Assembly: GCA_903901335.1 (NCBI GenBank)
Contig: CAIUQR010000065.1
Location: forward strand, 4,667-68,666
From: an uncultured delta proteobacterium
GTDB lineage: Bacteria > Desulfobacterota > Desulfobulbia > Desulfobulbales > Desulfocapsaceae
Direction of reading: 5' to 3'
Length of the DNA stretch: 64,000 nt
Below, piece after piece: positions 302-49,655 of the stretch. The translations under genes and the position numbers were made by a program. The notes under the pieces are model-generated. The model did not search any database, was not told where the DNA came from, and was given only the letters and a program-made list of their open reading frames with translations. Numbering within the stretch: position 1 is the stretch's first letter; every line of letters begins with the position of its first letter.

Positions 302-1825
302 TTAGTTAAGACCTTTAGTTGCCTTGAATGTATTACCAAAGCTGGTCAGTGCTTTATTCAGTTTCGCCTTAATTTCATCAGTGAATATTTTCTGTTCTTT
401 TAAATCCGTAAAGATAGAAGGCTCATTGGACTCGATATATGAATAGAGCTCCATCTCAAAACTAGCCAGGGTATTTACCGGCAGTTTATCCAAATATCCA
501 TTGGTTCCGGCAAAAAGGATCGTTACTTGTTTCTCCATGGGCAACGGCTGGTATTGCGGCTGTTTGAGTATTTCAACCAGGCGCTCACCTCTTGTCAACT
601 GGGCCTGGGTGGCCGCATCAAGATCGGAGCCGAAGGCTGCAAAAGCGGCAAGCTCACGATACTGGGCAAGGTCGAGACGAAGAGTACCGGCGACCTGTTT
701 CATGGCCTTAACCTGGGCACTACCACCTACGCGGGATACGGAAAGTCCAACATTGATTGCCGGTCGAACACCGGAGAAGAACAGGTTGGGCTCAAGATAT
801 ACCTGACCGTCGGTAATGGAGATAACGTTTGTCGGAATAAATGCAGAAACATCACCTGCCTGGGTTTCGATAATCGGCAGAGCCGTAAGCGAACCTGCGC
901 CTAACGCATCGTTCACCTTAGAAGATCTCTCCAGCAAACGCGAGTGGTTGAAGAAAATATCACCAGGATAGGCCTCACGTCCAGGCGGACGTCGCAAAAG
1001 CAGGGAAAGCTCACGATAGGCAACAGCCTGTTTCGACAGATCGTCGTATACAATCAACGCATGCATACCGTTGTCCCGAAAATATTCGCCCATCGAAGTA
1101 CCGGCAAACGGGGCAATGTACTGCATAGGTGCAGGATCGGAGGCACATGCCGCGACCACTGTTGTATAGGACATCGCGCCATGTTTTCTCAGCGCCTCAA
1201 CGACCAAGGCAACTGTTGATTTCTTCTGTCCGACGGCAACGTAGATACAATGCACATCGGTATCTTTCTGAGCGATAATTGCATCGACACAGAGGGCCGT
1301 TTTACCAATCTGACGGTCACCGATGACGAGCTCACGCTGGCCTCTGCCGACGGGAGTCATGGCATCGACAGCCTTGGCGCCGGTATAGCATGGTTCATGG
1401 ACGCCTTTACGGGCAATAACACCGGGGGCCAGAACCTCAATCTTAGAGCTCAGTTTGGCATTGATTGGCCCCTGTCCATCAATGGGGAATCCGATTCCAT
1501 CAACAACCCGGCCTTCCATCTCAGGTCCGACAGGTACCTCGGCAATTTTCCCGGTACGTTTGACGATATCACCTTCTTTGATTCCCTGAACACTTCCGAG
1601 GACCGCGCAACCGACATTGTCCTCTTCGAGGTTCAATGCGAGTCCCATAACTCCACCCGGGAACTCAAGAAGCTCCATGGCCATACAGTTCTGTACGCCA
1701 TAGATACGTGCGATACCGTCACCGACTGAGATAACGGTGCCGGTTTCATTAAGGTCAATACTTGTCTCGTACTCCCCAATCTGATCTTTGATAATCTGAC
1801 TGATTTCTTCGGCTTTGATCTGCAT
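302..1825 (-). CDS. atpA: F-type ATP synthase alpha subunit
   Basis: 507-aa ORF with Walker A GDRQIGKT and alpha-subunit sequence throughout. Sits in the delta-alpha-gamma gene order. Confidence 0.97.
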
Positions 1826-2371
1826 CTATTCTCTCCCCTTAATGGAATCTTTTAAACCTGCAAGCTGTGTCCTGATGCTGCCATCCAGTACCAGGTCTCC
1901 GACTTTAGCTATAATCCCGCCAATCAAAGATGGATCGACACTGGTCGACAGCTCAACTTTCTTGCCTGTTAATTTTTCAAGCGCGGCCTGAACACTGGCC
2001 TGCAATTCATCACTGAGTGCTACCGCTGAAATAACGGTTCCGTGGCTGACATTCTTTTCAATATCAACCAAAATCTGAAATGCTTCTGCAATCTCGGGGA
2101 GTATTTCAGCACGTTTTTTCTGCACCAGCAGGTTCAGAAAATTCCCCATGATTTTATCTACTCCGATAGAGTTGACAAGTCCAACCATGACCTTTTCCCT
2201 CACATCCAAAGGATAGAGTGGATTGGTCAAAGCGTCACCAACTTCCGGATGAGAGATATAAAGCCCGGCCACTCCCTGGAGAGCTTCATTATAGGCTTCG
2301 TAGTTATCGTTTTCCAAACCAACAGCAAAAAGTGCCTTGGCATATCTTCGCGCTAGGATTGTCTGTTTCAC
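1826..2371 (-). CDS. atpH: F-type ATP synthase delta (OSCP) subunit
   Basis: 181-aa ORF directly abutting the atpA start, with a 4-nt overlap with the b-subunit stop. N-terminus ARRYAKALF is OSCP-like. Confidence 0.9.
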   Translation of the reverse strand: MKQTILARRYAKALFAVGLENDNYEAYNEALQGVAGLYISHPEVGDALTNPLYPLDVREKVMVGLVNSIGVDKIMGNFLNLLVQKKRAEILPEIAEAFQILVDIEKNVSHGTVISAVALSDELQASVQAALEKLTGKKVELSTSVDPSLIGGIIAKVGDLVLDGSIRTQLAGLKDSIKGRE

Positions 2372-3084
2372 TGGACGGCCCCTACTTTAACTAGATAATC
2401 TTCAACGATCTTCACCTGATCGGCAGCTGTGAGGTTTTTGATAATCAATTCTTCAGCCATCGCTGCAGCCTGATCTGCAATCTCGTTCTTCAGCATCCTT
2501 CTGGCCTCAGTTATTTCATTCTGGATGGCCATCTCCGCCTGGCGTTGGATGTCGGCTGCCGTCTGCTCCGCTTTTTCAATGATTCTGGCCTTCTCAATCT
2601 GAGCCTGAGCAATGGCCTTCTCGACTATTGTGTCTATATCTTTCTCAACGCTTGCCAGTTTAGCCTCAAAATCTCTATAGGACTTTTCAGCCTCTGCTTT
2701 GCGCGCCTGGAGATCCTCGATCTCGGTCCTGATCTTGTTTTTTCGGCTGCTGAGTGCGGCTGCAATTGGTTTAGCAGCAAACTTTATCAAAATGATCATC
2801 AGGGCTATAAAGTTCATAACCCTGAAGCCCAGGTTCCACAATTTTTCTTTCGAGAGACTGTCATGATGAACGGGTCCATGCTCGGCGGCAGCATGTTCCG
2901 CCGCCTTACCCTCATGGACCGCTGCACCCGCCGTTGGTGCGCCTGCAGCAACTACCTGGCCGGCCTTTGCTTCCATATGGGGGTTGGCGGGCTCTGTCGC
3001 CCAAACCGTCCCACAGGACAAAGCAAACCAAAGTGTTGCCGCGACCAGAACCGTTCCCCTGGCTACTCGCTTCACTCCTTTCAT
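2368..3084 (-). CDS. atpF: F-type ATP synthase b subunit with N-terminal signal-like and Ala/His-rich extension
   Basis: 238-aa ORF. The C-terminal 160 aa have one TM helix (FIALMIILIKF) plus a long charged coiled coil typical of subunit b. The N-terminal 75 aa are extra (see findings). Confidence 0.85.
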   Translation of the reverse strand: MKGVKRVARGTVLVAATLWFALSCGTVWATEPANPHMEAKAGQVVAAGAPTAGAAVHEGKAAEHAAAEHGPVHHDSLSKEKLWNLGFRVMNFIALMIILIKFAAKPIAAALSSRKNKIRTEIEDLQARKAEAEKSYRDFEAKLASVEKDIDTIVEKAIAQAQIEKARIIEKAEQTAADIQRQAEMAIQNEITEARRMLKNEIADQAAAMAEELIIKNLTAADQVKIVEDYLVKVGAVQ

Positions 3085-3086
3085 CT

Positions 3087-3512
3087 CTAGAGACTCCTTC
3101 GCAGAATTTTACTGGCCATAGCGACGGCGAACCCATTGAGATTCCCCTGAAGACCTTTCGCAGCGGCGTCGATCTGAGACCGAATATCCGCCATCCTCTT
3201 CTCTTTGCCGGCTTCAACTTCAGCCTTTATCGCAGCAAGTTTCGCATTCCCTGCAGAAGCCGCCTCGGCTCGTGCAGAATCCAGGGCGGCCTTTGCCTTC
3301 CCGGATGCCTTGGCCATTTTTTTATCAACTTCTTCCTGCCGGAGACGCGCATTCTCCTGAATCCTCGCAACTTCAGACTGCATGCCTTGCATCTTTTCAG
3401 ATCTGTCACGCAAAATCTTCTTTACAGGCTTGTACAGGACTCCGTTCAGGATAAACATCAGGACAATGATGTTTATCATCTGAAACAACAAAGTAATATC
3501 CACCGTAACCAT
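3087..3512 (-). CDS. F-type ATP synthase b' subunit
   Basis: 141-aa ORF with an N-terminal TM helix (IIVLMFILNGVLYKP) followed by a charged helix. First gene of the b'-b-delta-alpha-gamma operon. Confidence 0.85.
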   Translation of the reverse strand: MVTVDITLLFQMINIIVLMFILNGVLYKPVKKILRDRSEKMQGMQSEVARIQENARLRQEEVDKKMAKASGKAKAALDSARAEAASAGNAKLAAIKAEVEAGKEKRMADIRSQIDAAAKGLQGNLNGFAVAMASKILRRSL

Positions 3513-3607
3513 GTTTGCATTCTCCTGATCAACTTAAGTTTATAAACTCAACATTCAGAATTGAATGAGGACATACTCTAAAATATATAAACTTGCAAGC
3601 ATTGAGA

Positions 3608-3644
3608 TGAATGGTCATTCATAACGAAAATGAATGGTCATTCA
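3608..3644. promoter_or_regulatory. Two tandem copies of the palindrome TGAATGGTCATTCA (3608-3621 and 3631-3644), candidate operator
   Basis: Read directly. The 23-nt unit ATGAATGGTCATTCA[T/C]AACGAAA occurs twice head to tail. The copies sit 11 nt and 34 nt downstream of the predicted -10 of the atp b' promoter. Confidence 0.55.
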
Positions 3645-3655
3645 CAACGAAAAAA

Positions 3656-3684
3656 TTTTTACTGTAAATAATCGGCCATGTCAA
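3656..3684 (-). promoter_or_regulatory. Sigma70-type promoter of the atp b'-b-delta-alpha-gamma operon
   Basis: The minus strand reads TTGACA (3684-3679), a 17-nt spacer, then TAAAAA (3661-3656). It lies about 145 nt upstream of the b' ATG. Confidence 0.45.
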
Positions 3685-7358: not shown

Positions 7359-7652
7359 ATGAAAGATGAACAAATAGATGCGTTGGCAAAAATCCTGAAA
7401 TCGATGTCCCATCCGATCCGTCTGAAGATCCTCTGTCTCCTGCAAAATCGGGAGTTATCGGTGGGTGATATCAGAAATCAGGTGGAGACGACCAATGCGA
7501 ACATCTCTCAACATCTGAATATCCTTCGTGCCCAGGGAATCATTGAATTCAGAAAAGAGGCCAATTTCATCTACAACAGGATTACCGACAGACGAATCCT
7601 CGACATGATCACAAAAATGCAGAAGCTGTTCTGTCCGGACCACAAGGAGTAG
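7359..7652 (+). CDS. ArsR/SmtB-family transcriptional regulator
   Basis: 97-aa ORF with HPIRLKILCLL...LSVGDI...NISQHLNILR, a typical winged-helix ArsR core. Confidence 0.85.
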   Translation: MKDEQIDALAKILKSMSHPIRLKILCLLQNRELSVGDIRNQVETTNANISQHLNILRAQGIIEFRKEANFIYNRITDRRILDMITKMQKLFCPDHKE

Positions 7653-7656
7653 TATT

Positions 7657-7869
7657 ATGATCGTTACAGACTGGGTTCACACTATTGCCGGCAGTTTTAT
7701 CCTGGTAAGTCTCGCTCTCGGCGTACCCGCAAGTCCTGTCTTCCACAGCCGGTACTGGCTGTTTTTTACCGCCTTTGTCGGGCTGAATCTCTTCCAGTAC
7801 GGAATCTCAAAATTCTGCCCGCTCGCCATTATCCTCAAGGCCTTAGGGGTGCCGGAAAACAGATCCTGA
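7657..7869 (+). CDS. Small YgaP-like (DUF2892-type) membrane protein
   Basis: 70-aa, two-TM ORF 4 nt after arsR. The motif LNLFQ..ISKFCP is typical of this family, which commonly pairs with ArsR regulators. Confidence 0.75.
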   Translation: MIVTDWVHTIAGSFILVSLALGVPASPVFHSRYWLFFTAFVGLNLFQYGISKFCPLAIILKALGVPENRS

Positions 7870-8515: not shown

Positions 8516-11500
8516 TCAAATCGGCAGTATGTGTGTCTCTTCCTGGATCTGGTGAACCCCCAGGAGGAGAAGACCGTTGCGCCCATCAATGGACACCCGG
8601 TCACCAAAATGGATCCTCTTGTCGCCGATCTCACAATACTGGCCCGTCTCGTAGACCTTCAAATGCTTGCAGCCAACCACGCAGGTCTTCTCCAATCGGA
8701 CTGCAACTACGGAGGCGTGGGAGGTCTGCCCACCCCGCGAGGTGATCAGGCCATCCGCCATGTCAATCACTTTGATATCCTCCGGCACCGTATCCTGGCG
8801 GAAAAGAATGAGCGGTGTACCAGGGTCGGATTTTCGTAGCTCTCTGATATTGCTCTCTGAAAATACCGCACGGCCTGCCAGGGCGGAACCGGAGACACCG
8901 ACACCTTTCCCTAGAATGTCCAGCGACAGGCTATCGGTCTCGACAAAGACATTCAGGTGCTCCTTTTTTTTGATGGTTATCATATCACGGGTCTGCAACA
9001 GATAGAGCTCATCCGGGGTTGGGCCTTCGAAGGTGAATTCCATCTCCTGCGGATTCCAGTTCTTTTCGTAAACCAGATCCCTCGAAATGGAGAGCAGCCT
9101 TTCATAGATAGCCGGAAACCTGCGCTCCAGAGTTTCGTTCACGTCCCTCCCATCCAGTTCCGCCTGCTCGACTGAGACTGCAAAACTGGTAACCAGCCCG
9201 GAAACGATATCTTCCCCCTGATCCCCATAGGCATAATCCCCCCAGAGGGCAACACGGGAGACCTTCCGGTAGGGATGGGCGGTGAAGAGGACCCCTGCTC
9301 CCGCCTCATCGGAACGGTTGCCGAAGACCATGGCCTGGACGATCACTGCGGTCCCCCAGGAGTCCGAGACATCCATGATCTTTCGATAATCCGAGGCCTT
9401 GAAGGTGTCCCAGGAATCCAGAACCATCTCGATGGCATTGACCAGCTGCAGCCAGGGATCATCGGGAATGCCATACCCGCGTTTCCGGATCAGTTTCTGA
9501 TAGGAAAGGGCCAGCTCCCTCATCTGTTCATGAGAAAATTCTCTTTTTAGATCAACATGATACTTGGCCTTAGCCTCATCCATCAAGCCCTGAAAATCCT
9601 CACGCTGCATCCCCGAAATCATCGCCCAGGACTGCAGAAAACGACGATAGTTATCCCAGGAAAGATAGGCATTGCCATGATCCCTTACATACTCTTCGAT
9701 CAGTTCCTCATTCATGCCGACGTTGTGGATCGTGGCCATCATCCCCGGCATCGAGATTGCCCCACCGCTGCGGACCGAAAGAAGAAGCGGCCGATCCGGA
9801 GAGCCATAGATTTTGCCGGTTATTTTTTCAATCTCGGAGAGAGAGGCGCGGATACGCTGCATGAACTCGTCCCGTGCCTTGGAAAAACCAAAGACCGCCT
9901 CCCGGCAGCGAAAGACCTCCGTCGTGATGATAAAGGCAGGAGGAACCGGTTTCTTTTCAGCGGCAAGGGTTATCAGATTATACCCTTTGTTTCCCAGATG
10001 AATCAGATCGTTTGTATAGGGATTGATTCGGTGCAGGGAGGAAATCGTTTTCTCAGGATTATAGGTCATAAGCAGGTCGAGGCCTTGCTTGTCCAGGATA
10101 TCCTTCTGATTCTCCAAAGTCTGAATTATCCTGACGATAAAGTTATCCAGATGCTGCAGACCGAAGGTGGAGGAGATCAGATCCCGGAAAAATGATTCAG
10201 ACAGGCGATAAATGGTATTGGTCATCTCATCACCATCCCATTGAGACCGGTATTTAGTCACCAGATCGCTCGGGCTGATCTGGGGGATAATAATGGACAG
10301 ATTGTTCTGATGGATGTTTGTATAGAAGGCATAGATGATATCTTTTACGCCCTCCGACAACCCACGGAAAATATCCATATACTGGGTATAGGAGAAGCGT
10401 CTGACCTTAAGAGAGTTGGTCAGCAATGACATATAGATATCAAGACGTCGTGAGGTTATTCCATCAATCCTTAAGGCCTGCAGGAAAAGCTTCAGGCATT
10501 TGACGATCCGAAAGAAGGTCGCCTGCGTGATAAAAGAGAGGTTGACGGTCTCGGGAAGCTTTTCCAGATAGATATTAGCCAGGTTTTCCAGACGAAATGT
10601 CAGGCCCAGACTGTCGAATTTCCGTTCCCGGTAGCGGCCGTAGACGGAAGGAATATCGACTGCAATATGCCGTTTATAATAGATATCCTCCCGTGCCTGG
10701 AAATGCTCGGGGGAGAGGATTATCTCTTTCAGACTTTCAAGACTCTTCAAGAGGGCCTCAAGACAACCGACCGTACCGCAGACCTCAAGCTCCGTAAGCA
10801 AACCCTCCATCTCCGGAAACCCTTCCTGGGCGGCCTGGAGCAGCTCCGTCTGCAGCTCCTGAAAGCCCAGATTGTATTTCCGGTGCAGGAGCTTGAACAT
10901 CTGCACCAGAAGCTCAAACCGACGGAGCTCCAGGGGATCGAGGTCAGCCTGGGAGGCCAGAAATTTTTTCAGATCGTCGTTTTCCCAATCAAGAATATCC
11001 TGCAAGCTGTGAAAATGAAGCTGCTCGATTATCCGCCCGGCAAGACGATTCTGATCATCGATAAACAGACCCTCTACCGCCACCTGATTGTACACCTCTT
11101 CCGGCAGATACGGCTGGAGCAGATGTTTCTTCCTTGTCTTCCAAAAAAGAAAGATGGCCTTGATAAAATCGACGATCAGGTTGGAGCTCTCGACGTGACT
11201 CTGTTTTCGTAAAAAATGGATCAGGACATCCTTGCGTTTATAGATCTCGTCAAGCTCGGTCGAGACGTCGCGCAATTCACCCTCTGCGCCGATTTCATTA
11301 AAGAAGACCGGCATAAGCTTGGTAAACTGTTTGGCAAGGTTATAGATCGGCTTGATAGGGTGATTCAACAATTCGGAGATATCCCTCTGGAAGAGATCCG
11401 TATCCTTGACACAGGTACCGGTGAGTTTCAGATTGATGATGAGGGCCGAAAAAAGCGTCGAGCACCATTTGGGCTCCTGCTCGATCAAGGTCAGCCAGAC

Positions 11501-12799
11501 CCGGATATTATTCAAATGGGCGGGATTGGTCAGCGGCTGCCAATCCTCATCCACACCTGCGACCTTGGCATATTGGAAGCCGAAACGGACCACGCCCCAC
11601 AGAAAGGCCTCCACCATGCGGCTATTGCCGCGGTTGAACACCTCTCCCCCAAGGACCTGGATGCATTGGAGAGAGGTATGGGGATATTTATTGACATTTG
11701 CTTTCAGCAGCTGAAAGGTCGTCAACAGAAATTCTTCAATCTCCTCAAAGCTCTGCTGCCTGATCAGCTGCACCAGACTGCGATTGATCTCTCTTAAGGT
11801 CTCTTCATGGATGAGGTACAGACCCTTCGTATCCATGATCTTGAAGAGGAAGAGCAGCTTCTGATTTTCGACAAAATGGTCCCCTGGACGATTTTGCCCC
11901 TGCCCTTCTTCTTCCGGCGTGGAGTCGATCTTCGCTAATCTCTCAGGTATTTCCTTATAAAATCGAACGATATCGATATGGGCCGGCAGATCGAGAATGC
12001 GGCTCAGTCCACCTCCCGGATCAGACTCGATATCAATTGCGACCAGGGTATCCCGGTGTTTCTGCATGGACTCGTGGGAGATCGAAGAAAAGAGCTGCTC
12101 CGAATGAAAATCGTTACGCAGAATGCCACACCGCTCCAGAAACCAGGGCATCGGATCGTCTTCCAGCAGCCAGTACTCATAATTTTTCAGAAGGATAGCA
12201 CGCATGAGCTGCGCAATCGGCCGATAATCAAAAGATGTCGGTTGCCGGGCACTGAAGGCAAGCAGATGGCCGGCAACTTTTTTCATCGGGTGCTGCCCCT
12301 GCACAATATGCATCAGGGCCGGTCCGTCGCCTTTTTCAAACTCCCGCATCATCGTAAAAATATGATTCAATGGTTTTTCAAACCTTTCGAGATCGCCAGC
12401 CTCCAGCAGACTGATCGTTTTCTCGATCCAGGCAATCTTCGCTTCAATGATCAGGGAGAGAAGGGTTTCATTTTTTTCCGAATCGTTGATCGCCTCGAAA
12501 AACAAGCGCGCAAACAGCTCAACGGCCGTAGGTCCTTCCTGATGACGAACAAAATGCCCAGTGTTTTTCAGCACAAAACTCCTGAAAACCGGCAAAATGA
12601 GACTCCAGTTCCGGAATGGATGGCAGATTTCATAGAGCAGACTCTCAAGACTTGAATACAACCCCTTAAATTTCTTCATCATATCCAAGAGAAGAAGCAG
12701 CTCCGGATCGATAACCACATTCTCGGCAGTCTCCAGGAGATTTGCCCTCAAGGCATCCGACTCGATTACCGCCGGCGAGGTGTGTATTTTCATTTCCAT
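8516..12799 (-). CDS. Large PEP-utilising-family protein: about 900-aa unknown helical N-domain, PPDK-type ATP-grasp and phosphohistidine swivel domain, with no PEP/pyruvate TIM barrel
   Basis: 1427-aa ORF. The C-terminal third carries VFGN..D.AGAGVLFTAHP...GDQGEDIVSG and LYLLQTRD (PPDK nucleotide domain) and LITSRGGQTSHASVVA (swivel His). The protein ends about 60 aa after that. Confidence 0.85.
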   Translation of the reverse strand: MEMKIHTSPAVIESDALRANLLETAENVVIDPELLLLLDMMKKFKGLYSSLESLLYEICHPFRNWSLILPVFRSFVLKNTGHFVRHQEGPTAVELFARLFFEAINDSEKNETLLSLIIEAKIAWIEKTISLLEAGDLERFEKPLNHIFTMMREFEKGDGPALMHIVQGQHPMKKVAGHLLAFSARQPTSFDYRPIAQLMRAILLKNYEYWLLEDDPMPWFLERCGILRNDFHSEQLFSSISHESMQKHRDTLVAIDIESDPGGGLSRILDLPAHIDIVRFYKEIPERLAKIDSTPEEEGQGQNRPGDHFVENQKLLFLFKIMDTKGLYLIHEETLREINRSLVQLIRQQSFEEIEEFLLTTFQLLKANVNKYPHTSLQCIQVLGGEVFNRGNSRMVEAFLWGVVRFGFQYAKVAGVDEDWQPLTNPAHLNNIRVWLTLIEQEPKWCSTLFSALIINLKLTGTCVKDTDLFQRDISELLNHPIKPIYNLAKQFTKLMPVFFNEIGAEGELRDVSTELDEIYKRKDVLIHFLRKQSHVESSNLIVDFIKAIFLFWKTRKKHLLQPYLPEEVYNQVAVEGLFIDDQNRLAGRIIEQLHFHSLQDILDWENDDLKKFLASQADLDPLELRRFELLVQMFKLLHRKYNLGFQELQTELLQAAQEGFPEMEGLLTELEVCGTVGCLEALLKSLESLKEIILSPEHFQAREDIYYKRHIAVDIPSVYGRYRERKFDSLGLTFRLENLANIYLEKLPETVNLSFITQATFFRIVKCLKLFLQALRIDGITSRRLDIYMSLLTNSLKVRRFSYTQYMDIFRGLSEGVKDIIYAFYTNIHQNNLSIIIPQISPSDLVTKYRSQWDGDEMTNTIYRLSESFFRDLISSTFGLQHLDNFIVRIIQTLENQKDILDKQGLDLLMTYNPEKTISSLHRINPYTNDLIHLGNKGYNLITLAAEKKPVPPAFIITTEVFRCREAVFGFSKARDEFMQRIRASLSEIEKITGKIYGSPDRPLLLSVRSGGAISMPGMMATIHNVGMNEELIEEYVRDHGNAYLSWDNYRRFLQSWAMISGMQREDFQGLMDEAKAKYHVDLKREFSHEQMRELALSYQKLIRKRGYGIPDDPWLQLVNAIEMVLDSWDTFKASDYRKIMDVSDSWGTAVIVQAMVFGNRSDEAGAGVLFTAHPYRKVSRVALWGDYAYGDQGEDIVSGLVTSFAVSVEQAELDGRDVNETLERRFPAIYERLLSISRDLVYEKNWNPQEMEFTFEGPTPDELYLLQTRDMITIKKKEHLNVFVETDSLSLDILGKGVGVSGSALAGRAVFSESNIRELRKSDPGTPLILFRQDTVPEDIKVIDMADGLITSRGGQTSHASVVAVRLEKTCVVGCKHLKVYETGQYCEIGDKRIHFGDRVSIDGRNGLLLLGVHQIQEETHILPI

Positions 12800-18367: not shown

Positions 18368-18676
18368 ATGGACGAACACTTCTCCACTCTCATTATCGAC
18401 GAATCTACCTGGTGCTCACTGAGTGAGGCCTGCAGTCTCTGCAGGGTGGATGATGAACGTATCCAGGAAATGATCCGGGAGGGGGTTCTCTCGCCGTCCG
18501 GCTCTTCCGCTCAGGAATGGCGTTTTGGTGCCCAGGAGTTGAAGCGTATCCAGATTGCTGTCCGGCTGCAGCGCGATCTGGGGGTGAACCTGCCTGGGGC
18601 GGCCTTGGCCCTGGACCTTCTGGATGAGCTGGAGCGCCTGCGAAATCTTACAAAAAACCTGGACATTACCGGGTAG
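18368..18676 (+). CDS. cbpM: MerR-like chaperone modulator CbpM
   Basis: 102-aa ORF 15 nt after cbpA. The C-terminal LQRDLGVNLPGAALALDLLDELERLR pattern is typical of CbpM. Confidence 0.75.
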   Translation: MDEHFSTLIIDESTWCSLSEACSLCRVDDERIQEMIREGVLSPSGSSAQEWRFGAQELKRIQIAVRLQRDLGVNLPGAALALDLLDELERLRNLTKNLDITG

Positions 18677-18752
18677 TTCCTGTACAGAATGCACATTCAG
18701 CGGGCTTTGAACAAGACCTTTACAACTCCATCCACCTTTATTGAGGGGAAGA

Positions 18753-19157
18753 ATGATTGCTGGAAAATTTTCAATAACTACAAGAAGTTCTATGGAGTTG
18801 ATCGACATCACCGCCATGGTCGGCGACAAGGTGCAGACTGCCGGCCTCAAGCAGGGGGTATGCACGCTGTTCAATCCCCATACCACTGCCGGCCTGACCA
18901 TCAACGAGGGAGCGGATCCGGCTGTCAGGCAGGATATCATCACCGGTCTGCAGAAAATTGTCCCGATGGCCCACCCCTTCAAACATCTGGAAGGAAATTC
19001 ACCGGCGCATATCATGGCCTCCCTGATGGGGAGTTCTCTTGCCGTTTTTATTGAAGACGGCAGACTCGTCCTCGGCACCTGGCAAAAGATCTTTTTCTGT
19101 GAGTTTGACGGCCCTCGGACTCGATCGCTTCACTGGCGGATCGCTGCATGCAACTGA
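18753..19157 (+). CDS. YjbQ-family (UPF0047) secondary thiamine-phosphate synthase-like protein
   Basis: The track ORF starts at TTG 18741; the ATG at 18753 follows GAGGGGAAG. Motifs HTTAGLTINE and HLEGNSPAHI match the family. Confidence 0.85.
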   Translation: MIAGKFSITTRSSMELIDITAMVGDKVQTAGLKQGVCTLFNPHTTAGLTINEGADPAVRQDIITGLQKIVPMAHPFKHLEGNSPAHIMASLMGSSLAVFIEDGRLVLGTWQKIFFCEFDGPRTRSLHWRIAACN

Positions 19158-25207: not shown

Positions 25208-25930
25208 TCAATGGGCATGCTCCTGAGCCTGGGCACAGTAGACAACCGCAAGCAACACAAAGACCATTGCCTGAACCAGAGAAACTAGAACACCCAGCAT
25301 CATGATGGGCAGCGGCGCGAAAAAAGCACCTGCCAGCATGAACAGGATTGCCAGAAGGGTCTCTTTGGCCATGATATTACCGAAAAGACGAACAGAGAGT
25401 GAAACTAAGCGGGCAATATTACTAATCAACTCGATGGGCAGCATCAAGGGAACCAGCCACCAGAGGGGCCCCATGAAATGTTTATAATATTTTAAGCCAT
25501 GGGCACGTAAACCGATCACATGGTGGGTAGCCCAGACGATGATGGTCAAGGCAAGGGTTGTATTGATGCTGGATGTTGGAGACATCAGACCGGGAATGAG
25601 GCCGATCAGGTTGCCAACTGCGATATATAAAGCAAAGGTCGACAGCATCGGAAAGAGTGCATCAGCCATTTCTCTGCCCATATTCTCAACAAAGAAATCA
25701 TCCATGCCACCAATAAGAATTTCCCAGAAATTCTGACCGCTTCCAGGAACCATCTCCAGATTGCCGAGGGTCATTTTGGAGACAACAATGAGAAATATCA
25801 TTACCAGCCAGGTATAGGTCATATACGGTTCACACAACTTTTCCAGTAAAGTATGCCCGACAAAGTCATGCGGCACTGGAAGTCCCAACTTCTCCAGAAT
25901 AATTGATATAAAAAGTATCGGATGTTCCAT
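25208..25930 (-). CDS. atpB: F-type ATP synthase a subunit
   Basis: 240-aa polytopic ORF with the essential Arg motif LSVRLFGN. Confidence 0.93.
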   Translation of the reverse strand: MEHPILFISIILEKLGLPVPHDFVGHTLLEKLCEPYMTYTWLVMIFLIVVSKMTLGNLEMVPGSGQNFWEILIGGMDDFFVENMGREMADALFPMLSTFALYIAVGNLIGLIPGLMSPTSSINTTLALTIIVWATHHVIGLRAHGLKYYKHFMGPLWWLVPLMLPIELISNIARLVSLSVRLFGNIMAKETLLAILFMLAGAFFAPLPIMMLGVLVSLVQAMVFVLLAVVYCAQAQEHAH

Positions 25931-25939
25931 AACCCCTTA

Positions 25940-26398
25940 TTACCTCCTCCCACTGAAAAAATAGTGCCTGGCCACGCCCAATGCCGTGAATGTGACAGTA
26001 AACACTACTGTTGACAACCCCAGAAGCAAACCAATGATATTATCTCTGCTGATTTTATGACTCTTGATAATAACCAGCAAAACAATACCAATGATAAGAA
26101 TCCGGAACCAGAACTTGATTATTAGGCCAAATTTTCTTTTCTTGATTTCCTTTTTCTCGCTTTCGCCTTCCTGAACCGTAGTCATGGATTCAAGGAATCC
26201 AACGACATCCTTATGTGAGACCCGAAAACTCAGGATGGAGATAATCCCTCCCGCCAATACGGGCCAGGCAAACGACCACGAAAAAATAATCCAGGAACCA
26301 ACCGTTAACATCAGAAGATATAGCCAACTTAAAAGCTGTATCTTCTGCGGGGACAGCAAATCATCAACCACGTCATCCTCTATCGTCTTTTCCGTCAT
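25940..26398 (-). CDS. atpI: ATP synthase protein I-like membrane protein
   Basis: The track ORF is 178 aa. I prefer the ATG at 26398 (MTEKTIEDD). It is a multi-TM protein directly upstream of atpB. The call rests mainly on position. Confidence 0.55.
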   Translation of the reverse strand: MTEKTIEDDVVDDLLSPQKIQLLSWLYLLMLTVGSWIIFSWSFAWPVLAGGIISILSFRVSHKDVVGFLESMTTVQEGESEKKEIKKRKFGLIIKFWFRILIIGIVLLVIIKSHKISRDNIIGLLLGLSTVVFTVTFTALGVARHYFFSGRR

Positions 26399-26642
26399 TC
26401 TTGTTGTTTTTGTCGTTTTTGTCTTTAACACGCCAGAGGATTTGAAGCAACGTCTTAAAGCCTGCAACAATACCAAATGCCAGCCCTATAAAAGTAAACC
26501 AGGGAGCAGTACGACCATTAAATACTTTCTGGTCCAGAAGAATCCCGCCTCCCAGACCGACAAATATACATGCGACAAAGGTAAAACCGATATGCCCATA
26601 ATTTGCAAGTAAGTCGATCATCTCATTCTTTAAATCAGACAT
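26373..26642 (-). CDS. atpZ: AtpZ/AtpI2-like small membrane protein
   Basis: The track ORF starts at GTG 26654; the ATG at 26642 gives MSDLKNEM. It has two TM helices with the GLGGG.LLD and GLAFGIVAG pattern of the AtpZ family. First gene of the atpZ-I-B-E operon. Confidence 0.6.
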   Translation of the reverse strand: MSDLKNEMIDLLANYGHIGFTFVACIFVGLGGGILLDQKVFNGRTAPWFTFIGLAFGIVAGFKTLLQILWRVKDKNDKNNKNDGKDDRG

Positions 26643-26686: not shown

Positions 26687-26729
26687 GGCTTTTTGGTAGC
26701 ATGCCTACTCCCCAAAGTCAACGATTTTT

Positions 26730-28022
26730 TTATATTTCCAGTAATTTTTTGAATGACCATTCAGTCATTTCGGCCGTCTTTTCAAGATCATCAATCGTGT
26801 GAGCTGCTGAAATAAAAGCAACTTCAAACTGAGAGGGAGCAAGATAGATTCCCCGGCTCAACATCTGCCGATAATGGCGGCCGTACAAATCCGTGTTCGA
26901 CTTTATCGCCGAGGTAAAATCAGTGACCGGCTCGGAGGTGAAAAATAAGGTCATCAATGAACCGGCTCTGTTGATCTGCACGGAAAGGCCGACTCTTTCA
27001 GCAATGTCCTGTAACCGACCGGCCAGCCAGGCAGATTTTCTGTCAAGTTCATTGTAAAAATCCTGCTTCTGCAGCAATTTGAGTGCAGCAATCCCCGCCG
27101 CCATCGCCAGAGGATTCCCGGACAGGGTTCCTGCCTGATATACAGGGCCATCCGGGGCAATGCAATCCATTATCTCCGCCTTTCCTCCATAGGCGCCTAC
27201 CGGCAGTCCGCCACCGATAATCTTTCCAAGACAGGTCAGGTCGGGGGATACACCGTAGACTTCCTGGGCGCCGCCATACGACAGCCTGAATCCGGTGATG
27301 ACCTCATCAAAGATCAGGACAATCCCCAACACCCTGGTCAACGCCCTGAGTGTGGAAAGAAAATCCGGAGCCGGAAGCACACATCCCATATTGCCGGCCA
27401 CAGGTTCAACGATGACGCAGGCAATCTCAAGGGAGGCGTTGCGAAGTGTCTTTTCGAGTATATCTAAATTGTTATAGGGGATAGAAACGGTATTCCTGAC
27501 AATATCCTCAGGAACACCTGGACTGCCCGGTATCCCCAAGGTAATCACACCGGACCCGGCCTTGACCAAGAAGGAATCAGCATGCCCATGATAGCAACCG
27601 TCAAATTTCACAACTGTTTTTCTACCTGTATATCCCCGGGCAAGACGAACGGCACTCATCGTGGCTTCCGTACCTGAATTGACAAACCGGACCTTTTCAA
27701 TGGAGGAAACAGCCTCCACTACCAGGGATGCCAGGTCTATTTCGGCAGGAGTCGGTGCCCCGAAACTGGTTCCATCCTGGGCTGCCTGGCATATCGCCTT
27801 GATTATGGCAGGGTGGGCATGCCCCATGATCATCGGCCCCCAGGAGCCGACAAAGTCGAGGAACTCGTTCCCGTCTACATCAAAGAGGGATGCCCCTGCA
27901 GCCCTTTTTATAAATAAAGGATCACAGCCGACGGAACGGCAGGCTCTGACCGGACTGTTGACTCCTCCCGGAATCACCTTCCGTGCCTTTTGAAACATAC
28001 TTCCGGAAATCCTGGTTTCCAT
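26730..28022 (-). CDS. hemL: Glutamate-1-semialdehyde 2,1-aminomutase
   Basis: 430-aa ORF with N-terminal [13 protein letters not shown], class III aminotransferase features and a GSA-AM pattern throughout. Confidence 0.95.
26750..26763. promoter_or_regulatory. Exact copy of the palindrome TGAATGGTCATTCA (minus-strand reading) upstream of atpZIBE
   Basis: The plus strand reads TGAATGACCATTCA. It lies inside the last codons of hemL (..TEWSFK..), 96 nt upstream of GTG 26654. Confidence 0.5.
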
Positions 28023-46833: not shown

Positions 46834-47961
46834 TTACTTAATATGGCTTGTGTACTTGAACTGAGTTGTAGTACGCCAGGTGTCATATGCAAGGCGATAG
46901 TCGTCGATGCTTTTCTCTGTAAACGGTATATCACATTTCTCGAAAAATTTCTCCCAGCCGATACGCTCGGCCCATTCACCGACGCGCTCATATTTCTTGG
47001 CGTCTCCAGCATAGGCAACAAGAATCTTCTTGATGGCTGCAACGGTCTCAGGCCAGCGAGGAGTAGTATTCGGCAGAAATGGAATAACAAGTTTAGAGAA
47101 TTTCGGCGCACTTATACGGTTGGAAACCTTTCCACCAACAAGGATCGCGATACCGTCTCCTTCCGGATCAGCGAGAGGCATAGCCGGACACATGGTGTAG
47201 CAGTTACCGCAGAACATGCACCGCTCATTGTTAACCTTAACGGTCTTGATCTCTTTTCCGTCAATCTCGATTTTTGCAGGTTTGACAGCGCCAAGGGGAC
47301 AGGAAGCGATAGCCAGAGGCAGCTCGCAGACACCGGTGATACGACTGTGGTCGATCATCGGCGGCTTACGATGCACACCAAGGATGGCAATGTCGGATGC
47401 ATGTACAGCGCCGCACATATTCAGACAACAGGCCAGGGCGATACGGCATTGCGCAGGCAGGGTCATGGAGGTGAAGTAGTCGAACAACTCATCCATAACG
47501 GCCTTGACAACACCGGAGGCATCCGTTGCCGGAGTGTGGCAATGAACCCATCCTTGCGTATGAACGATATTGGTCACACCGGCTCCGGTTCCACCAACGG
47601 GGAACTTATTGCCGCGACTCTTCAGATCGTCCAGCAAAGGCTGAACCTTCGCCTTGGAATCGACCATGAACTCTATATTGTTCCTGGTAGTAAAGCGCAT
47701 GAAGCCATCACAATGTTTATCGGCGATATCACAGATCTCGCGAACAAACTCAACTGACATCAAACGCACACCGCCGGCTCGAATCGTGTAGACCTCGGCC
47801 CCTGTCTCGGACTTATGCAACAGGACACCGGGCTGAAGAATCTCATGCCAGAGCCATTTGCCTTTGTTTTCCTTGATGACAGCGGGGAAAAACTGCTCAT
47901 AATAGAGCGGACCGAGATCGGAAATCCTTCCTTCCATCGGTTTTTCTGGATTATATCCCAT
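46834..47961 (-). CDS. dsrB: Dissimilatory sulfite reductase beta subunit
   Basis: 375-aa ORF with ferredoxin-insert cysteines [12 protein letters not shown] and siroheme/FeS Cys motifs. Follows dsrA. Confidence 0.95.
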
Positions 47962-48015
47962 GATGTAAAACTCCTTATAGTATCATTGATAAAAACGAAT
48001 CAAATCATAACAGCA

Positions 48016-49296
48016 TCAAGCTGCATGTTTCTTTCGGAATTCGACGACATCACGCTCAAATCCGCCGGGAACCTCTTCATCCTGCCAGAAAACATAAGGG
48101 TTGGACCGAGGCTCTTTAACATGCTGCGGAATCGGCTCAATGCCCATGACCTTGATAAAGGTAGGCAGACCGACACGCTGCATGGTCTCACCGACACGCT
48201 CACGGTTCTTGCCGACTTCCATCCACCAATCCCAAACGGTTTCAATAAAGTTTACCAGTTCTTCGAAGTCATTGTCCTTGGAAACCTTCATGAAAGGTAC
48301 GATCAGGGTTGCAAACTGGGCGCCGTCCAGGATCGGGGCCTTGGCGCCGACACAGATGGTAGCGCCGGTGTCAACACCGGGGCGAAGGGCACGCGGCATA
48401 ACATTGATACAATGCATGCAACGGGTACACTCTTTATCATCTATCTTCAGCTGGCCGCCTTCCATCCACATACATTCTGTCGGACAAAGGCCGATGACCT
48501 CTTTCTGGATGTCGAACTTACCCCAATCACGTCCACTGTGAGCACCGCCGTTTGCCGGATAATTGCCGGCGATATATTCTTTTACGGCTGCCTGGTCGAT
48601 ACGGATATTATCCCTCCAGGTGCCGATAACGGCAATATCGGAGCGGGCAATTGCTGCTACGCAGTCATTGGCGCAACCGGAAAATTTAAACTTAAACTTA
48701 TAGGGGAAGGCAGGGCGATGAATCTCGTCCTGATATTTCATGGTCAGGAAATAACAGCACTCTTCTGTGTCATAGCAGGACCACTCGCAGCGGGACTGGC
48801 CGATACAGTTGGCCGGAGTACGCAGATTGGAGCCTGAGCCGCCGAGATCCTGATTCAGGTCATGGGTCATATCCCAGAATAAGGGCTCAAGATTTTCAGT
48901 CCGGGTACCGAGGAGGATGATATCACCGGTGGACCCATGGAAGTTGGTCATACCGGATCCATATTTCTCCCAGAGATCCATCAACGCGCGGAGATGCTTT
49001 GTGGAATAGTATTTCGATGACGGCTGGGCAACACGAACAGTATGAAAATGCTCAACACCCGGGAACCGCTTCGGTAGATCCGAATACCGTCCGACAATAC
49101 CACCACCGTAGCCAAAAACACCTACGATCCCACCGTGTTTCCAGTGGGAAATCCTGTCCGTATAAGACAATTCAAGCTGACCAAGAATATCCCAAACCTC
49201 GGGCTTGGTTTCGGCCTGGTGCTTCATGTCGGTAACGAAGCTTGGCCACGGGCCACTCTCCAATTGATCCAACAAGGGCGTTTCATGCTTTGCCAT
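48016..49296 (-). CDS. dsrA: Dissimilatory sulfite reductase alpha subunit
   Basis: The ATG at 49296 follows AAGGAGGAAATC and gives MAKHETPLLDQLESGPWPSFV. CTRCMHCINV ferredoxin-like insert. Confidence 0.95.
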   Translation of the reverse strand: MAKHETPLLDQLESGPWPSFVTDMKHQAETKPEVWDILGQLELSYTDRISHWKHGGIVGVFGYGGGIVGRYSDLPKRFPGVEHFHTVRVAQPSSKYYSTKHLRALMDLWEKYGSGMTNFHGSTGDIILLGTRTENLEPLFWDMTHDLNQDLGGSGSNLRTPANCIGQSRCEWSCYDTEECCYFLTMKYQDEIHRPAFPYKFKFKFSGCANDCVAAIARSDIAVIGTWRDNIRIDQAAVKEYIAGNYPANGGAHSGRDWGKFDIQKEVIGLCPTECMWMEGGQLKIDDKECTRCMHCINVMPRALRPGVDTGATICVGAKAPILDGAQFATLIVPFMKVSKDNDFEELVNFIETVWDWWMEVGKNRERVGETMQRVGLPTFIKVMGIEPIPQHVKEPRSNPYVFWQDEEVPGGFERDVVEFRKKHAA

Positions 49297-49561
49297 GATT
49301 TCCTCCTTTGAATTTCTATTAAACTGCAACCTTTACCTAACAAATAGACTATAACCAGATTCCGTCTCTAAACAACAGGCCGGATATGGTTGTACACCAG
49401 CCCAAACGACAAGAGAACTATGAAAAAATTACAGTATATTTCCCTGCAACTTAACATTTATGTATACTACATTGAGTAAATACCAGCCGATCCGCTGTCA
49501 GAACAACTCCGCTGGTTTTGCTTTGAGTTACTCGTAGATCACAACACATACAGTGTTCTAC

Positions 49562-49575
49562 TGAATAACCATTCA
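49562..49575. promoter_or_regulatory. Palindrome TGAATAACCATTCA (one mismatch to the atp operator), promoter-proximal dsrA site
   Basis: Read directly. On the minus strand it begins 7 nt downstream of the predicted dsrA -10. Confidence 0.5.
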
Positions 49576-49582
49576 GCGCGTG

Positions 49583-49611
49583 AGAATATCCGTGAACATC
49601 TCTTTTGTCAA
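49583..49611 (-). promoter_or_regulatory. Sigma70-type promoter of dsrABD
   Basis: The minus strand reads TTGACA (49611-49606), a 17-nt spacer, then TATTCT (49588-49583). This implies a leader of about 280 nt. Confidence 0.45.
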
Positions 49612-49641: not shown

Positions 49642-49655
49642 TGAATGGTTATTCA
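49642..49655. promoter_or_regulatory. Palindrome TGAATGGTTATTCA, promoter-distal dsrA site
   Basis: Exact reverse complement of the 49562 site, 80 bp away. It lies 31 nt upstream of the -35. Confidence 0.5.

Follow-up and report, generated by a model that had tools for sequence, protein, structure and literature searches.

The window, by which we mean the whole 64,000-nt stretch of Desulfobulbales DNA analyzed here, carries two ATP synthase operons headed by atpF' and atpZ, together with the sulfite reductase genes dsrA and dsrB, whose DsrA product is 89-90% identical to DsrA of Desulfocapsaceae and Desulforhopalus. The promoters of all three are accompanied by the same short inverted repeat, here called the dyad. 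On the minus strand ahead of atpF' (ATG at 3512), direct reading gives TTGACA (3684-3679), a 17-nt spacer and TAAAAA (3661-3656), followed after 11 nt by TGAATGACCATTCA (3644-3631) and, 9 nt further, by a second copy of TGAATGACCATTCA (3621-3608). A promoter scan selected the same -35 hexamer and an alternative -10, AAAAAT, with an 18-nt spacer (10 of 12 matches). Tandem Repeats Finder reported the unit ATGAATGGTCATTCAYAACGAAA over 3607-3653, with a period of 23 nt, 2.0 copies and 95% identity. Both the promoter with its two dyads and the duplicated 23-nt unit had been described in a first-pass annotation of this DNA, which also called the 14-mer an exact palindrome. On that last point it was mistaken, as TGAATGACCATTCA is self-complementary at 12 of 14 positions (TGAATG-NN-CATTCA); the symmetry breaks down at the two central bases (GT/AC), which makes it an inexact palindrome.

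The core TGAAYNNNNRTTCA (TGAAY-N4-RTTCA) has five exact matches in the window versus 0.38 expected, and none of 100 shuffled sequences reached five. These sites, at 3608, 3631, 26750, 49562 and 49642, all lie at the atpF', atpZ or dsrA promoters, and the two at dsrA each differ by one base from the atpF' 14-mer. The strand-symmetrised consensus is aC-TGAAT-RRYY-ATTCA-Gt, with G+C of 62% at positions 6 and 9 of the centre and 46% at positions 7 and 8. Its arms are invariant and its centre is variable, as expected for protein recognition.

To assess conservation at the dsrA promoter, we compared dsrA loci from 80 species, of which 52 are Desulfobulbales-like (DsrA 71-90% identity) and 28 form an outgroup (about 65%). 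The pattern TGAA[TC]N4[AG]TTCA matches 59 times in the 23.4 kb directly upstream of dsrA, in 46 of the 52 ingroup loci, versus three times in the remaining 800 kb of flanking DNA; outgroup loci with a match number four of 28. The enrichment at dsrA promoters is thus about 670-fold, across about 50 species. The promoter is conserved as well, since a T-tract followed by TTGACAAA-17-TATTCT/TATGCT/TAAGTT is kept in 48 of the 52 loci. Of 51 Desulfobulbales dsrA promoters, 36 have a strict dyad that starts 7-10 nt past the -10 and therefore spans about +1 to +14. A second dyad lies 27-31 nt upstream of the -35 in 20 of the 51, the window included, and 11 of 13 successive dsrA dyad pairs are spaced 78-81 bp centre to centre.

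Cable bacteria differ from this pattern. Their dsrA loci (L024:9830-10000, L027:980-1152 and L035:9830-10000), from Ca. Electronema halotolerans, Ca. Electrothrix aarhusensis and one related metagenome-assembled genome, keep the T-tract and TTGACAAA-17-TATGTT/TAAGTT while the dyad is missing, L027 having a remnant, cTAAATAAGTAATCAa. This suggests that dsrAB has been released from the dyad's regulator in a lineage thought to run the pathway oxidatively, and the site loss is a hint of regulatory rewiring alongside a change of lifestyle. The dsrA leader itself (49297-49582) extends about 285 nt from the predicted promoter. The final ~45 nt ahead of the ATG (…ggtaaaggttgcagtttaatagaaattcaaaggaggaaatcATG) are near-invariant across Desulfocapsaceae-like loci, and the leader matched no Rfam family; this conserved end may be a translational or RNA-level control element.

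Orthologous atpF' promoters retain the dyad too. A metagenome contig (L100), in which AtpF' is 72% identical and the alaS-atpF' order is the same, has retained both dyads along with the promoter. In Desulfomarina profundi (L205) and Desulfoprunum benzoelyticum (L207), where atpG, atpD and atpC continue the operon, the promoter is accompanied by a single dyad 12-13 nt downstream of the -10, which in each genome is the sole match within 20 kb. All three conserve the -35 as tataaattRgTTGACA and have TAAAGA/TAAGAA(T) as -10. Since L205 and L207 carry one dyad only, the operator conserved among these genomes is the proximal dyad, and the 23-nt duplication belongs to one lineage; the two-dyad geometry emphasized in the first-pass annotation thus holds for the window and L100 and not for Desulfomarina and Desulfoprunum.

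A metagenome scan for tandem dyads gave L100 as the only orthologous locus among the matches listed, the others being mostly unrelated: AT-centred ARG-like boxes, GTGAATCCTGATTCAC pairs, and TetR-/puu-type divergent promoters. Pairs of GTGAATCCTGATTCAC / GTGAATCAGGATTCAC, 8-12 nt apart, occur in many metagenome contigs of 62-72% GC (L090, L091, L110, L112, L124, L134, L186, L188, L190, L193 and others) and are a distinct operator or repeat family with TGAAT/ATTCA arms. Arrays of at least three TGAAT-N4-ATTCA units with 22-26-nt periods are found in unrelated contigs (L147:1735-1852, L152:1049-1223, L096:958-1021, L098:10044-10101 and L094:1126-1191), and look like iteron-like or multi-box operators.

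The site at 26750 is placed differently, 108 nt ahead of atpZ and within the 3' end of a class-III aminotransferase (hemL-like) gene. Four relatives (L208-L211) encode ATPase_gene1, atpI, atpB and atpE and keep the order trxA / hemL-atpZ-atpI-atpB-atpE, and TGAATGGTCATTCA is exact in three of them (L208, L210 and L211), 28 nt upstream of the promoter. As the dyad falls within the hemL codons for M-T-E-W-S-F-K-K, synonymous positions were tested. The degenerate codons across the dyad are identical in the four genomes in six of six cases, versus 16% of the conserved-residue degenerate codons as background, and the dyad region is the sole invariant stretch of at least 22 nt in the 1293 nt of hemL. 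These frozen synonymous positions indicate that the DNA of the atpZ site is under selection. On the protein side, residue conservation in HemL ends with MTEWSFKK (26730-26790), the tail at the C-terminus being variable otherwise, and judged from these alignments the atpZ operator appears to constrain the HemL protein sequence.

According to the first-pass annotation, the motif recurs at dsrA, atpZIBE and trxA, and the dyads sit on the transcription start. The dsrA and atpZ sites proved conserved, and the placement holds at atpF', with the start predicted from the promoter hexamers; the atpZ site is about 71 nt upstream. The trxA site (28270, AGATTGGTCATTCA), which precedes trxA and has two mismatches to the core, is without counterpart in L208-L211. 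It is best treated as chance, and trxA was rejected as a regulon member. Another sequence in the window, AGAATGCACATTCA at 18686-18699, has one mismatch to the core; its neighbors are a CbpM/HspR-like MerR-type gene (18368-18676) on one side and a YjbQ-like open reading frame (18689-19054) on the other, and it is also downstream of a DnaJ-like gene. This site is probably chance or another operator.

Beyond the window, the dyad is highly specific. Strict matches number 74 across 979 kb of Desulfobulbales DNA, where about 3.7 would be expected by chance, and 71 of them are at dsrA, atpF' or atpZ promoters. The other three comprise one before sat (L051), in the sat leader of Desulfurivibrio dismutans, one before a dsrN-like gene (L050), and one unexplained, so that the 73 explained sites all precede dsrA, atpF', atpZ, sat or the dsrN-like gene. 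At sat, the dyad lies 12-23 nt after TTGACAA-17-TATAcc/TATAGG in four of five genomes, and in D. alkaliphilus the sole two matches in 21 kb are those of sat and dsrA. In two deep-branching lineages (L050:16303 and L063:9353), the CobB/CbiA-like (dsrN-like) gene that lies downstream of dsrABD is provided with a TTGACA-type promoter of its own and, after it, a dyad. The arrangement extends to an outgroup locus. The motif is conserved across Desulfocapsaceae, Desulfobulbaceae, Desulfurivibrionaceae and relatives. The check proposed in the first-pass annotation, whether the motif stands upstream of orthologous atp and dsr operons and of sat, therefore came out in its favor. Its idea of one regulator for sulfite reduction and ATP synthase is supported in about 50 Desulfobulbales species, with a target set that extends to sat and the dsrN-like gene. 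Features of the window are collected in Table 1.

Table 1. Promoters, dyads and target genes in the 64-kb window. Positions relative to the transcription start refer to predicted starts.
Feature	Position	Strand	Basis or remark
Operon atpF'-atpF-atpH-atpA, part of atpF'FHA(GDC), runs past window start	302..3512	-	Pfam ATP-synt_B x2, OSCP, ATP-synt_ab
23-nt tandem duplication holding both atpF' dyads	3607..3653	.	Tandem Repeats Finder
Second atpF' dyad TGAATGACCATTCA, about +27 to +41	3608..3621	-	Lineage-specific duplicate; also in L100 (8-nt gap), absent from L205 and L207
Promoter-proximal atpF' dyad TGAATGACCATTCA, about +4 to +18	3631..3644	-	Conserved in L100, L205 and L207
-10 of atpF', TAAAAA (17-nt spacer) or AAAAAT (18-nt spacer)	3655..3661	-	Direct reading, promoter scan
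-35 hexamer TTGACA of the atpF'FHA(GDC) promoter	3679..3684	-	Direct reading, promoter scan
atpZ (ATG 26642), atpI, atpB	25208..26642	-	Pfam ATP-synt_I, ATP-synt_A
atpZ promoter TTGACT-17-(TG)cTACCAA, begins 28 nt downstream of the dyad	26693..26721	-	Kept in L208-L211
Dyad TGAATGGTCATTCA upstream of atpZ-atpI-atpB(-atpE), in last hemL codons, centre about -71	26750..26763	-	Conservation
dsrA, dsrB	46834..49296	-	Pfam NIR_SIR, NIR_SIR_ferr
dsrA operator dyad TGAATGGTTATTCA, 7 nt after -10, about +1 to +14	49562..49575	-	Conserved position
dsrA promoter TTGACA-17-TATTCT behind T-tract	49583..49611	-	Direct reading, conservation
Upstream dsrA dyad TGAATAACCATTCA, 30 nt upstream of -35, centre about -73	49642..49655	-	Direct reading, conservation

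With good confidence, we propose that in Desulfobulbales a sequence-specific protein uses C-TGAAT-RRYY-ATTCA-G as its operator and co-regulates sat, dsrAB(D), the dsrN-like gene and both ATP synthase operons. This protein is most likely a winged-helix repressor that acts as a dimer. Repression is indicated because the sites fall between +1 and about +40 and their promoters have a consensus -35. The regulator would be encoded outside the window. At atpF', dsrA and sat, where the site falls between the -10 and about +40, the bound protein would block RNA polymerase binding or promoter escape, until an effector signalling redox, energy or sulfur status releases it. The extra dyads, i.e., the atpF' duplicate and the dsrA copy about 73 nt upstream, probably raise occupancy by cooperative binding or looping, and the single atpZ dyad could also stop read-through from hemL. 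As for the family of this protein, one other than the three considered below has the best prospects, although short of an even chance. An ArsR/SmtB-like protein is a possible, tentative assignment, a diverged Rex is doubtful, and an ArgR-type protein is unlikely. A bolder version of the proposal, which we offer as speculation with some plausibility, is that a lineage-specific master repressor of a family new to central energy metabolism (e.g., an ArsR/SmtB 'metal-type' or ArgR-type protein repurposed as redox/sulfur sensor) fills the role of the Desulfovibrio Rex and switches sat, dsrAB and both atp operons together, its dsrA operator having been lost in cable bacteria.

Some points weigh against the proposed operator and its repressor. 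In Desulforhopalus, Desulfotalea and some Desulfopila (L006, L008-L012, L014, L016 and L052), the start-site dsrA dyad is degenerate and the upstream dyad alone is strict. The atpZ dyad (about -71) and the upstream dsrA dyad (about -73) are at positions typical of activators, and the factor could therefore act both ways. Information outside the 14-bp core is at most 0.35 bits, and bases further than about 8 bp from the centre add little, unlike the full 12-2-12 consensus of ArsR/SmtB operators. The window and the Desulfobulbales loci gave no tblastn match to Rex of B. subtilis or ArgR of E. coli. The promoters of aprAB, qmo, dsrMKJOP and dsrC are outside the Desulfobulbales loci sampled. The sequence of the dyad and its enrichment, position and conservation were observed; protein binding, repression, the direction of regulation, the effector and the regulator family are predictions from the DNA, as are the start sites, which were placed from the conserved promoter hexamers.

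Several other explanations of the dyad have to be considered. If an A/T-rich palindrome had simply recurred between genes by chance, that would fit the unconserved trxA site and the window counts that tolerate one to three mismatches, which are near expectation (16 versus 8.2 and 8 versus 4.1), but this reading is refuted by the count of exact sites and by the dsrA enrichment at a fixed position in so many species. The dyads might instead fold as 5'-leader hairpins acting on RNA stability, termination or translation, as they are predicted to be transcribed at atpF', dsrA and sat, and the two copies in the atpF' leader can pair in two 7-bp helices (leader -31.3 kcal/mol, z=-2.2). However, such a dyad-to-dyad hairpin needs two copies and is impossible in the single-copy L205 and L207, and a lone dyad forms only a 5-bp A/U-rich stem. 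Degenerate copies have mismatches without compensating change between the arms, the atpZ and upstream dsrA dyads are about 70 nt upstream of their promoters, and an Rfam search gave no match; DNA-protein recognition is therefore favored, and we consider an RNA element very unlikely. A candidate regulator close at hand is the BigR-like ArsR protein (7359-7652), a putative sulfite/persulfide sensor that could give sulfur feedback on sat, dsr and atp. No other classical repressor gene lies close to a target. The distance of this one to the atpF' promoter is 3.7 kb, and the arsR-ygaP / isochorismatase-alaS-atpF' order is kept in three genera. The best structural match of the protein is BigR (Protein Data Bank entry 3pqj, E=7e-17, both sensor cysteines aligned), followed by HlyU, SqrR-type proteins and YgaV. 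In E. coli, anaerobic respiratory genes are under the control of the homologue YgaV (PMC9774250), and the dyad is within the ArsR-family operator class in a broad sense. Yet the promoter of the gene conserves CTTTACAAA and then TATTAAATTAAAT, without a dyad, and the SqrR/YgaV subgroup binds ATTC-N8-GAAT. In a published comparison, ArsR clusters showed no cross-talk. The recognition helix reads SQHL, like BigR and HlyU, with Q where the TGAA-binding metal sensors carry His, although the mapping of this residue to the specificity position is tentative. We accordingly set this protein aside as an improbable regulator of the dyad.

Two classical operators resemble the dyad in sequence or in targets. 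ARG boxes, bound by an ArgR/AhrC-type hexamer through which arginine status would control the promoters, have the core TGAAT-N4-ATTCA. This core is identical to that of the dyad, a likeness already pointed out in the first-pass annotation; the atpF' pair resembles paired ARG boxes, and many unrelated metagenome matches with AT-rich centres, among the matches listed, look like classical tandem ARG boxes. The dyad centres are RRYY and about half G/C, not A/T-rich, and dyads are mostly single per promoter. Paired dyads have centre-to-centre distances of 22-25 or 78-81 bp, as against 20-21 bp for ARG boxes. No arginine gene is among the targets and no argR gene was found in the loci searched, so that arginine control seems unlikely. 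Better placed, although still doubtful, is the idea that the dyad is the Rex operator of Desulfobulbales, in which an NADH/NAD+-sensing Rex reads half-sites moved outward by 1 bp each (CTGAAT-N4-ATTCAG versus TTGTGAA-N4-TTCACAA). TGAA/TTCA is present in both motifs, and no competing classical Rex box occurs at the dyad promoters. Ravcheev and co-workers reportedly found, in 2012, that atp operons are among the predicted Rex targets. The predicted Rex regulon of Desulfovibrio includes sat, qmoABCD, dsrABD, apsAB and dsrMKJOP, and in a rex mutant sat was up-regulated while dsrABD was not induced (PMC4045070). The dyad's gene set is Rex-like since sat and dsrABD are among these predicted targets, and with atp it agrees with a regulon that is partly validated. 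In a control, the Halodesulfovibrio sat promoter was found to have Rex-type boxes (TTGTCTAATTTTTCACAA) and no dyad, the boxes filling the position that the dyad has in Desulfobulbales. Against a Rex origin, the dyad half-sites are 2 bp further apart (TGA-N8-TCA versus TGA-N6-TCA) and the flanking TTGT/ACAA is missing. Rex boxes are also reported, by Ravcheev and co-workers in 2012, to be highly conserved across phyla. Rex boxes with at most three mismatches are not enriched in the window (4 versus 3.2 expected), none of the classical type occurs in the window or at any Desulfobulbales dsrA promoter, and no rex gene was found within the window or about 1.5 Mb of loci searched. The statement of the first-pass annotation that the dyad is not a Rex box thus stands, and the preferred reading remains an operator of a dimeric repressor.

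A few neighboring genes deserve mention. The window encodes the small ArsR-type protein and a cNMP-binding/DUF4388 protein; a Rex-type regulator gene was not found there. The ArsR gene forms a two-gene unit (7359-7869), the second gene of which codes for a YgaP-like membrane protein of 70 aa. Desulfomarina and Desulfoprunum show the same synteny, and this unit with its two-Cys regulator is probably a separate sulfur-species sensor system. Positions 8516-12799 encode a 1427-aa protein with PPDK_N and PEP-utilizer domains confined to its C-terminal third and about 970 N-terminal residues without a Pfam match; it is conserved beside the gene gap in Desulfomarina and Desulfoprunum. Beside sat, three Desulfurivibrionaceae-like genomes carry a DUF2582 winged-helix gene (L213:11889-12359, L215:11867-12391 and L214:11413-11883) encoding a protein of 156-174 aa with a lysine-rich N-terminus. 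It was rejected as a candidate regulator, having no dyad upstream and being absent elsewhere. Halodesulfovibrio (Desulfovibrionales) and Desulfurivibrio (Desulfobulbales) have Sat proteins that are 84% identical and sat promoters with different operators, Rex-type boxes in the former (H. aestuarii, L216:7640-7860) and the dyad in the latter; sat may have been exchanged between the orders and its regulation re-fitted locally.

A description of the motif or of its regulon was not found in the searchable literature. Repressor operators that define a regulon are an ordinary kind of element. What appears to be new is the operator itself, its association with sat, dsr and atp within Desulfobulbales, and its difference from the Rex box that Desulfovibrionales use for these genes. 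The genes drive a large share of the marine sulfur cycle, and little is known about their control in sulfate reducers outside Desulfovibrio; one regulon would here be wired via different operators in sister orders. With this 14-16 bp handle, the regulator can be fished out directly by DNA-affinity purification. The dyad might also serve as a metagenome marker or as a part for engineering regulation in these bacteria.

The dyad can finally be compared with known operators. CRP/FNR-family sites have the form TGTGA-N6-TCACA or TTGAT-N4-ATCAA, and their TGA-N6-TCA spacing differs from the TGA-N8-TCA of the dyad. ARG boxes share its core and have an A/T-rich centre and tandem 18-bp boxes 2-3 bp apart (about 21 bp centre to centre), which the dyad lacks; an example of an ArgR site is AGTGAATAATAAGG (PMC11172107). 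SqrR, BigR and YgaV resemble the proposed regulator as winged-helix repressors that couple genes of respiration or energy metabolism to a sulfur signal (YgaV: PMC9774250), but the half-sites of their operator are arranged opposite to those of the dyad. Judged by sequence and placement, the closest published class and best match is the ArsR/SmtB-type operator (SmtB, CzrA, AztR and AzuR), a class left unmentioned in the first-pass annotation, which shares the core TGAAY-N4-RTTCA (cf. AATACCTGAACA-GA-TGTTCAAGTATT and TACAATTGAATA-GT-TGTTCAATTGTT). Its 12-2-12 repeats include TGAACA-GA-TGTTCA and TGAATA-GT-TGTTCA, and occur once or twice, either on the transcription start or in the stretch from the -10 to the start codon (PMC8790569), as does the dyad. 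The outer arms of the 12-2-12 repeat (AATA... ...TATT) are not conserved at the dyad. Furthermore, ArsR/SmtB targets are metal-resistance genes, whereas those of the dyad are central energy genes without an adjacent cognate regulator. A cognate ArsR-family repressor is as a rule encoded nearby and autoregulated via its own operator type; AzuR provides a precedent for a remotely encoded one (PMC8790569). In target logic, the dyad is most like the Rex regulon, with operators at or near the sat, dsr and atp promoters, and differs from it in lacking the 18-bp palindrome TTGTGAA-N4-TTCACAA. By analogy, the dyad system may be regarded as the functional counterpart of the Desulfovibrio Rex regulon, with a different operator.

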